Source: Candidatus Shapirobacteria bacterium
GTDB lineage: Bacteria; Patescibacteriota; Microgenomatia; UBA12405
Reading direction: 5' to 3'
NCBI GenBank assembly: GCA_017991615.1
Contig: JAGOQF010000003.1
Location: 285-64,284, forward strand
DNA: 64,000 nt
Positions 21,594 to 21,692 of the stretch are shown piece by piece; the stretch's first letter is position 1, and each line of letters opens with the position of its first letter. Below the pieces are notes generated by a model. That model had not been told where the DNA came from. It saw nothing but the letters and a program-made list of their open reading frames with translations, and ran no database searches. The translations under genes were made by a program, and so were the position numbers.

Positions 21594-21692
21594 TTATTTT
21601 CCGCAACACTGCTTATATTTGCGTCCAGAGCCACATGGATCTGAATGATATTTAAATATAGGCAAACTTGTCTCTTTTTTATTATTTTTCAT
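21594..21692 (-). CDS. Unannotated 32-aa ORF encoding a SEC-C zinc-binding motif peptide: MKNNKKETSLPIFKYHSDPCGSGRKYKQCCGK.
   Basis: I translated the minus strand by hand. It is too short for the provided ORF track. DPCGSGRKYKQCCGK matches the SEC-C consensus [14 protein letters not shown] found at the SecA C-terminus and in YecA/YchJ. No obvious SD is present. Confidence 0.4.
   Translation of the reverse strand: MKNNKKETSLPIFKYHSDPCGSGRKYKQCCGK

Follow-up and report, generated by a model that had tools for sequence, protein, structure and literature searches.

A 32-codon open reading frame in a Patescibacteria contig as the probable insertion seam of a secA-tail-bearing methyltransferase cassette

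Introduction

Genomic islands at tRNA and tmRNA genes integrate into the 3' end of their target and regenerate it, which is known as the Islander principle (PMC4383910). In Dehalococcoides, ssrA islands are arranged in tandem with repeated target ends, and units lacking an integrase have been proposed to be cis-mobilizable elements (CIMEs) (PMC3146451); CIMEs and their accretion with ICEs (integrative and conjugative elements) and IMEs (integrative and mobilizable elements) have been reviewed (PMC5704250). The locus described here lies in a 64-kb stretch of a contig from Candidatus Shapirobacteria bacterium, hereafter called the window, in which a 32-codon open reading frame (ORF) on the minus strand was initially described as encoding a free-standing SEC-C zinc-binding motif. 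We conclude, with a probability of roughly 0.92, that this ORF is not a free-standing zinc-finger gene but an insertion seam, at which a methyltransferase cassette bearing a copy of the secA tail split a UPF0167 gene. The features of the locus are listed in Table 1.

Chimeric structure of the ORF

Translation of the minus strand over 21594-21692 yields MKNNKKETSLPIFKYHSDPCGSGRKYKQCCGK followed by a stop codon, exactly the 32 codons first reported. The ORF is located 49 nt 3' of the HIT stop codon (21741) and upstream of the methyltransferase gene, in a stretch of approximately 2 kb with a local GC content of 0.27 (27%), while the window elsewhere is mostly 33-43%; its placement between the HIT gene and the methyltransferase promoter module, inside a low-GC island, is thus as originally given. 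The zinc-binding tail of SecA, C-P-C-G-S-G...C-[CH], follows the pattern C-x-C-x8-C-[CH] and provides four zinc ligands. The match of the ORF to SEC-C, which had been called almost perfect, is significant (Pfam PF02810, 28.0 bits against a gathering cut-off of 20.4, E = 2e-6) and exceeds chance even given the approximately 10^4 short ORFs in the window, but it is restricted to ORF residues 19-32 and profile positions 6-19 of 19, and the first cysteine ligand is missing. In particular, the ORF reads DPCGSG (DPCGSGRKYKQCCGK) and, with three cysteines, retains three of the four ligands, because the repeat copy begins after the first cysteine codon of secA, at the second CCATGT unit. That the SEC-C part derives from the SecA tail is borne out by the DNA: the 45 nt at the 3' end of the ORF are 77-91% identical to genuine secA 3' ends. 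The core of this copy, CCATGTGG, occurs once in the window.

The first 18 codons have a different origin. Residues 10-18 (LPIFKYHSD) constitute the N-terminal motif of the UPF0167 family; F13, K14, and Y15 fall on invariant columns of an alignment with 13 homologues, and the N-terminal lengths agree, as homologues starting ME-D-NKKxxxxLPKFKYHPDPLKTGS reach the motif over the same length as the ORF. When the 1,170 bp at 20469-21638 are deleted in silico, an in-frame protein of 183 aa results, which covers the whole UPF0167 profile (PF03691, positions 1-174 of 174) with 169.7 bits; the listed ORF at 19971-20495 alone covers positions 10-174 only, with 151.8 bits. The rejoined junction, at which LPIFKYHSDP meets LKTGSI, fits the family consensus LPKFKYHPDPLKTGSI in the alignment with the 13 homologues. 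The remainder of UPF0167 is found 1.17 kb downstream of the ORF's 18 codons, and the listed ORF takes its GTG start and nine further codons from the right arm of the cassette; the neighbouring UPF0167 ORF is a 5'-truncated pseudogene with a borrowed start. The predicted sequence of the empty-site junction is TTCAGATCCATTAAAAACTGG, and that of the UPF0167 target site is GATCCATTAAAAACTGG. A resemblance of the 5' half of the ORF to the right arms of two array tiles (L068 and L118) was considered and discarded as a spurious A-rich extension; neither frame nor ATG is common to them, and UPF0167 fits far better.

The same island is present in a JGI contig (L138), in which a 2-nt deletion at 20187-20188 is the sole difference over 4.55 kb. 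This deletion frameshifts the UPF0167 fragment (L138 1558-2080), which is called there as two products of 102 and 65 aa. The frameshift fits, and suggests, decay of the locus, although it may be an assembly error.

The ORF is not universally unannotated, as had been supposed, since 18 public metagenome contigs carry a gene call for exactly this 32-aa product. Six of these contigs were fetched, and across the island their DNA matches the window at 100% identity; because the sampled DNA is identical and represents the same strain, these copies carry no information on conservation. An exhaustive phmmer search of 1.84 billion cluster representatives detected no related stand-alone peptide, only the ORF's own cluster and two long unrelated proteins, and neither of the two closest relatives (L010 and L007) has the ORF; amino-acid conservation among relatives, the test proposed for a functional micro-protein, was not found. 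No Shine-Dalgarno sequence is visible 5' of the ORF, the ATG of which is the UPF0167 start, while the methyltransferase gene is preceded by AGGAG.

A discrete methyltransferase cassette

The sequence of the window from 21638 to 20465 is 92.4% identical over 1,174 nt to positions 4826-5988 of another contig (L011), in which the counterpart segment sits between two orphan secA tails in an array behind secA. The homology starts exactly at 21638, at the proline codon, and stops at CCAT (20465), past which L011 reads CCATGTGG, i.e., the next orphan, and the window reads CCATTAAAAACTGG. The right end, ...gtgactgaaatattaaatgcactaaYg followed by CCAT, is common to the window, L011, and a further tile (L059); CCAT is followed by GTGG in the arrays, where the next secA tail begins, and by TAAAAACTGG in the window, where UPF0167 resumes. 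Both ends are therefore base-exact across the window, L011/L012, and L059, which shows a discrete element in independent contexts; L059 carries other cargo between the same arms. The cassette contains the methyltransferase ORF and its arms only, that is, att-like ends without recombinase or transfer genes, by which CIMEs are recognized. The motif TTAGATACC occurs four times in the window, always within the cassette. Homologues of the methyltransferase, ranging from 95% down to 67% identity, are found in secA arrays, and the contigs encoding the 95% and 81% homologues (L011/L012 and L016/L017) have a full-length secA upstream on the same strand. If the cassette circularized, the predicted junction would read GCACTAACGCCATGTGGCTCTGG.

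A 6-nt deletion removing 'PC' from a complete motif was considered and rejected: the copy begins at secA's second CCATGT unit, like other 'xP' orphans. The 45-mer of the window is also mosaic-like when compared with the L011 copies at 4826-4870 and 5985-6029, in that positions 9-20 (CTCTGGACGC) resemble L011 copy c, while positions 21-45 and the downstream arm resemble copy b; this pattern hints at possible exchange points inside the repeat.

Table 1. Features of the window at and around the junction ORF
Feature	Coordinates	Strand	Basis or remark
Chimeric junction ORF, attL-type	21594..21692	-	Translation; UPF0167 and secA comparisons
Codons 1-18 (MKNNKKETSLPIFKYHSD): true start and 5' end of the split UPF0167/CbrC gene	21639..21692	-	
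45-nt secA-tail copy (PCGSGRKYKQCCGK + stop), left cassette end	21594..21638	-	Matches secA 3' ends, L011/L016 orphans, and many genome tiles
Conserved core CCATGTGG, first 8 nt of the 45-nt copy	21631-21638	-	
Integrase-less methyltransferase cassette, 1,170 bp, inside UPF0167	20469..21638	-	Edges ambiguous by four shared bases, CCAT
TTAGATACC-tt-TTAGATACC pair in the left arm, putative integrase arm-type sites	21519..21538	-	Motif distribution
Terminator-like hairpin (aaaaagaccaaaattggtcttttttt) between left arm and methyltransferase promoter	21482..21505	-	
Promoter-like TTGATA-16-GATAAT, then AGGAG ribosome-binding site	21454..21481	-	10/12 match, consensus only
Cargo: 268-aa S-adenosylmethionine (SAM)-dependent methyltransferase	20647..21453	-	Pfam Methyltransf_11/25
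Right arm: second TTAGATACC pair (20618-20638), hairpin (20607-20624), and ~140 nt ending ...gtgactgaaatattaaatgcactaacg	20469..20638	-	Conserved in L011/L012 and L059
Displaced UPF0167 remainder, codons 19-183 + stop (165 codons), starting CCATTAAAAACTGG (P-L-K-T-G-S)	19971..20468	-	
Strain-specific low-GC block (UPF0167 + cassette) between convergent HIT and RNase J	19885..21746	.	Missing in closest relatives

Arrays of orphan secA tails in other genomes

In L011, secA (ending in ...DPCPCGSGRKYKVCCGK and a stop codon) is followed by five orphan tails, PCGSG[KR]KYKxCC[GD]K plus stop, and in L016 by four. These orphans begin at PCGSG; the sequence upstream is unrelated and contains stop codons in most copies. 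The core CCATGTGG is invariant in 11 of 12 copies, with later codons varying mostly at synonymous sites, and secA itself reads CCATGT immediately followed by CCATGTGG. A genome scan with a degenerate pattern, from which genuine secA ends (TGY-CCN) were excluded, recovered at least 120 tiles of 8 kb (L018-L137). As the pattern allowed mainly synonymous variation, codon-position patterns in the tiles are biased by construction, and the unbiased evidence on codon positions is that of the L011 and L016 copies found by blastn only.

The following counts apply among the matches listed. The tiles belong mostly to gut or rumen metagenome-assembled genomes (MAGs) labelled Bacilli, Tenericutes, Mollicutes, Mycoplasmatota, Acholeplasmatales, or Erysipelotrichaceae, and a few are labelled Saccharibacteria or Nanosyncoccus. 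They hold at least 152 orphan copies with a median stop-to-stop frame of 30 aa; an ATG-started ORF, of 15-40 aa, is present in 28 of the 152 and absent in the other 124, and the core CCATGTGG is present in 114. Their geometry is strict. All orphans that share a tile with secA lie downstream of it on the same strand (43/43), none of the 26 multi-copy tiles has mixed strands, and successive copies are spaced 0.7-4.9 kb apart, the median unit size being approximately 1.5 kb. One or two ORFs occupy 97 of 113 intervals, 172 of 176 cargo ORFs are co-oriented with the array, and the cargo is diverse, with 866 ORFs falling in 562 clusters that include GNAT, ASCH, AgrB, WYL, RhuM, and GH10 proteins. 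Recurrent neighbouring ORFs resemble hpf, prfB, and ftsX, as judged by motif and L016 gene calls only. UPF0167 was not detected in the array tiles by tblastn.

Several observations extend the picture of the arrays. A further 32 SEC-C-like matches in L018-L137 have a residue other than proline before the cysteine (TS, TT, SS, stop-A, LL), which suggests a second boundary register or degraded repeat copies. Some cassettes (L030 5644-5834, minus strand; L011 9016-10008; L125 6507-7517) carry an extra class-I aminoacyl-tRNA synthetase (tRNA-synt_1b, approximately 330 aa), which could be an auxiliary or antibiotic-resistant synthetase; a T-box leader (97 bits, Rfam) is present in one scanned array and is not tied to a particular cassette. 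Also among the cargo (L011 6284-7183 and L131 750-2828) are a GIY-YIG/NUMOD3 protein resembling homing endonucleases and a protein of 692 aa in which seven DUF4379 treble-clef zinc fingers are combined with a NUMOD-like domain. Two different Candidatus Nanosyncoccus genomes share an identical orphan secA tail (L057 5179-5224 and L136 ~2094-2138, both on the minus strand), together with its upstream arm and a low-GC (0.30) cargo gene of 226 aa; the surrounding host genes are different in each. The cassette family is thus found repeatedly in genomes labelled Patescibacteria. An orphan tail is also present in L093, labelled Saccharibacteria. Four-ligand SEC-C tails that are unrelated to the orphans occur on IMG/VR viral contigs of 39-183 kb (L140 1547-1591, minus strand; L144 8548-8592 and L143 3655-3699, plus strand).

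Integrases, arms, and a prophage at the secA site

In seven tiles (L114, L098, L116, L060, L022, L137, and L071), the start of a tyrosine integrase gene (PF00589 and PF14659) is located 180-260 nt downstream of a tail copy that has the same strand, and in L114 this copy is the genuine secA end; integrase fragments are also found in L128, L073, L108, and L051. On a 40-kb IMG/VR contig (L141), the secA end is followed by a hairpin, a TTAGATACC-tt-TTAGATACC pair, an integrase gene, a gene for a helix-turn-helix (HTH)-type, cI-like regulator, and an SSB-like ORF. Next come ORFs with putative tail, lysis, and restriction-modification functions, succeeded by a right arm and an orphan tail. As judged from this order, L141 is a prophage with putative attL and attR at the secA site, the identities of the genes other than the integrase being taken from ORF sequences only. 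Its integrase is only approximately 20-27% identical to the array-associated family.

The arms have recurrent features. The hairpin after the stop codon has a median free energy (dG) of -10 to -14 kcal/mol, compared with -4.4 in controls. TAGATAC occurs at +100 to +140 from the start of the 45-mer in 50 of 147 orphans (among the matches listed), in 18 of 42 secA ends, and in 4 of 134 controls; within 245 nt upstream, it occurs in 74 of the 147 orphans. A second class of right arm, GC-richer and approximately 90 nt long, carries repeated CCAAGTGC with TTCTGCTAGGTTTGCC and AATTAACGAG; it is found in L011_f, L016_c/d/e, L139 12130-12228, and approximately 25-30% of the orphans among the matches listed, and k-mers of these three sequences occur in none of 345 background segments. 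The TTAGATACC pairs are probably arm-type binding sites of the integrase, as far as the distribution of the motif indicates, and the CCAAGTGC-class arms may be binding sites or a structured element. Rfam searches of the arrays and of the island returned no family matching the arms.

The strain-specific block and its host

In the closest relatives, L010 and L007, the flanks of the locus are 81-94% identical to the window and the gene order is FtsK-ProRS-HIT followed by convergent RNase J, with the stop codons of HIT and RNase J 1 nt apart. The ORF, the methyltransferase, and UPF0167 are all absent from this locus in both relatives; the segment from 19885 to approximately 21746 is therefore a lineage-specific indel. 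The phylum assignment of the locus rests on the source names of the HIT homologues, which are Woesebacteria, Shapirobacteria, or Patescibacteria. HIT ends in ...KKMLLKNLQL in the window and in ...KKKLIKNL in the two relatives, and DNA homology stops at 21753 (site 21741-21752); acquisition of the block therefore replaced the HIT stop codon and added two codons. AAAAAT is found near both ends of the block (~21753-21758 and ~19894-19899) and may represent microhomology. Other GC dips in the window (0.31-0.33, at 13001-14000, 34001-35000, and 45001-46000) contain neither a secA-tail copy nor TTAGATACC.

A proposed route of insertion

According to the model proposed here, the last 45 nt of secA would be the usual integration target of this cassette family. 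Every element brings a copy of the final 14 codons of secA plus the stop codon, starting with the core CCATGTGG, so that integration would regenerate the zinc-binding tail of SecA while the previous tail would be displaced downstream as an orphan; repeated events would build co-oriented cassette arrays behind secA. In the window, the cassette sits at a secondary look-alike site, GAT-CCA-T at UPF0167 codons 18-20, compared with GAT-CCA-TGT-CCA-TGT in secA. The left junction combines 18 UPF0167 codons, the shared Pro19 (CCA), and 13 codons of cassette-borne secA tail with its stop codon into the 32-codon ORF, and the rest of UPF0167 is left stranded 1.17 kb downstream. In its normal context the 45-mer would keep secA intact; it has no such role in the window. 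A tyrosine integrase acting in trans probably catalysed the insertion, and the 32-aa peptide presumably has no function of its own.

Alternative explanations

Several points weigh against this interpretation. No related integrase is present in the 64-kb window (best tblastn E = 0.13), CCAT alone is duplicated as a direct repeat at the ectopic site, and the identity between this secondary site and the secA site is short, comprising CCAT and a few flanking matches. The pre-insertion state is a reconstruction made in silico only, and an uninterrupted UPF0167 allele was not found, the rejoined junction having 0 matches in JGI metagenome contigs. The insertion may have happened either in a donor or in this genome. 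Since the copies of the island are identical save one 2-nt indel, an absence of selection on the peptide is not directly measurable, and the ORF, which retains the native start of UPF0167, may well be translated.

The same anatomy might have arisen if repeated secA tails recombined through homology or microhomology, for instance following DNA uptake, with no site-specific integrase involved. Most cassettes, including that of the window, lack an integrase; the mosaic 45-mer, with its resemblance to L011 copies b and c, hints at exchange, and the ectopic site has CCAT alone in common. This route is nevertheless unlikely: on their left side the orphans have a sharp boundary at CCATGTGG, which is invariant even at synonymous positions that vary elsewhere in the 45-mer, integrase genes adjoin tail copies, and a complete prophage is located at the same site. 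Moreover, the arm motifs TTAGATACC and CCAAGTGC are conserved with a near-zero background, and strand polarity is strict. An assembly chimera, in which foreign low-GC DNA was mis-joined into a Patescibacteria contig, would account for the jump in GC content (0.27 against mostly 0.33-0.43) and for the closest relatives of the cassette apparently belonging to another phylum; it is extremely improbable, given that the junctions recur unchanged in assemblies made independently, by different pipelines and from different samples (ENA, Logan, and JGI; L001-L006 and L138).

Other explanations concern the peptide itself. For a stand-alone SEC-C zinc micro-protein, an independent gene for a zinc-binding product with SecB or the ribosome as a possible partner, as the preliminary description envisaged, one can cite the SEC-C score above the cut-off, the presence of ATG and stop codons, the gene calls on 18 contigs, and the existence of small SEC-C-tailed proteins, such as phage ORFs that are open for 103-173 codons before a genuine CPCGSG (L140, L143, and L144). 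The evidence effectively refutes it, and it is highly improbable, as one zinc ligand is missing, residues 1-18 are the N-terminus of UPF0167, residues 19-32 are the end of a cassette of the same kind as the non-coding orphans, most of which lack an ATG-started ORF, and neither a homologous family, nor a counterpart in the closest relatives, nor a Shine-Dalgarno sequence is found. An exapted junction peptide, i.e., a chimera made by the insertion, translated from UPF0167 signals, and endowed with a new function such as metal binding by three cysteines and His16, is very unlikely. The genuine start codon and upstream region of UPF0167 are kept, and His16, four residues before Cys20, might in principle serve as a fourth ligand, but there is no sign of selection, the event is confined to one strain with identical copies, the frameshift of the UPF0167 fragment in one population suggests a decaying locus, and SEC-C tails normally work within a larger protein. 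It had also been suggested that the ORF is a remnant, which points in the right direction; a longer SEC-C-tailed gene in situ, either a broken HIT-SEC-C fusion or a frameshifted upstream gene, has a vanishingly small probability. Although the C-terminus of HIT and the ORF share a reading frame, five in-frame stops separate them and the other two upstream frames also contain stops; SEC-C is present in 0 of 120 listed HIT homologues, which are approximately 127-176 aa long except for one of 212 aa, and the HIT stop abuts that of RNase J in the relatives.

Implications

The identification of the ORF as an insertion seam removes a false lead, a 'SEC-C micro-protein' already propagated by gene callers on 18 public contigs, and corrects the annotation of the neighbouring UPF0167 ORF. 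It also draws attention to an essential gene whose last 14 codons serve as an attachment site and have to be encoded anew by each arriving element, and to gut Bacilli lineages, little studied so far, in which small cassettes of accessory genes form long arrays. The 92% nucleotide identity between the cassette and its array counterpart represents a datable, sequence-defined, recent flow of DNA out of an array and into a genome that is apparently of Patescibacteria; phylum and donor lineage are both taken from database labels. If the integrase and att pair works as inferred, it would constitute a site-specific integration system that is compact and has a clearly defined target of 45 nt.

It is tentatively suggested, as a possibility somewhat short of even odds, that the secA 3' end in uncultured gut and rumen Bacilli- or Mollicutes-like bacteria is the anchor of an integron-like gene-capture platform. 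Such a platform would comprise hundreds of tiny, promoter-bearing, integrase-less cassettes with a coding SecA-tail replacement and attP-type arms (TTAGATACC pairs and CCAAGTGC repeats). Phage-type tyrosine integrases, acting in trans, would shuffle these cassettes, and escapes to secondary sites and across phyla into Patescibacteria would happen at times (the window and the two Nanosyncoccus genomes).

Comparison with known systems

The two protein families joined in the ORF are each represented in part. SEC-C (PF02810) is found in SecA and also in YecA and YchJ, and the last 14 residues of the ORF derive from and align with this motif; unlike in these proteins, the first cysteine is missing, no protein body is attached, and the arrangement was made by recombination. 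Residues 1-18 correspond to the N-terminus of UPF0167/CbrC (PF03691), including the invariant F-K-Y, but only 18 codons of that family are present in the ORF.

Like tRNA and tmRNA islands, the secA elements bring a replacement of the target 3' end, and the displaced fragment marks the far boundary. Unlike in those islands, the target is the coding 3' end of the essential gene secA, so that the repeat keeps 14 codons of a zinc motif; moreover, the secA units are very small (median approximately 1.5 kb, one or two genes), and the copy in the window is ectopic, within another gene. The Dehalococcoides ssrA islands share with the arrays tandem units, direct repeats, a location entirely downstream of the target, and the lack of an integrase in some units, but the Dehalococcoides integrase is a serine recombinase, whereas those of the secA arrays are tyrosine integrases. 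As in CIMEs, the cassette of the window has att-like ends and cargo without recombination or transfer genes, and the arrays also hold integrase-bearing elements at the same site. In comparison with CIMEs, mobilization would here presumably occur in trans, at least one integrase-bearing partner is a prophage, and no conjugation or mobilization genes were seen in the sampled secA arrays.

The arrays resemble integrons in consisting of mostly single genes in promoter-proximal orientation (172 of 176 cargo ORFs among the matches listed are co-oriented) in integrase-less cassettes with diverse cargo (562 clusters for 866 ORFs), and in having a short conserved recombination sequence at each cassette boundary. 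They differ in that an attI site with an adjacent IntI-type integrase is lacking, the integrases being of a generic phage type (PF00589/PF14659), and in that the boundaries consist of a coding secA tail and conserved arms rather than attC-like imperfect palindromes, as judged without an attC model. In addition, at least the cassette of the window supplies a promoter and a terminator of its own, and the arrays are anchored to a housekeeping gene at its 3' end. In the literature searched, no description of the secA 3' end as an integration target was found, which does not prove that none exists. The anatomy of the locus is thus of a known kind, the junction of an integrative element; what appears to be new is the coding secA-tail target, the very small size of the cassettes, their integron-like arrays, and an ectopic landing in what is apparently another phylum.

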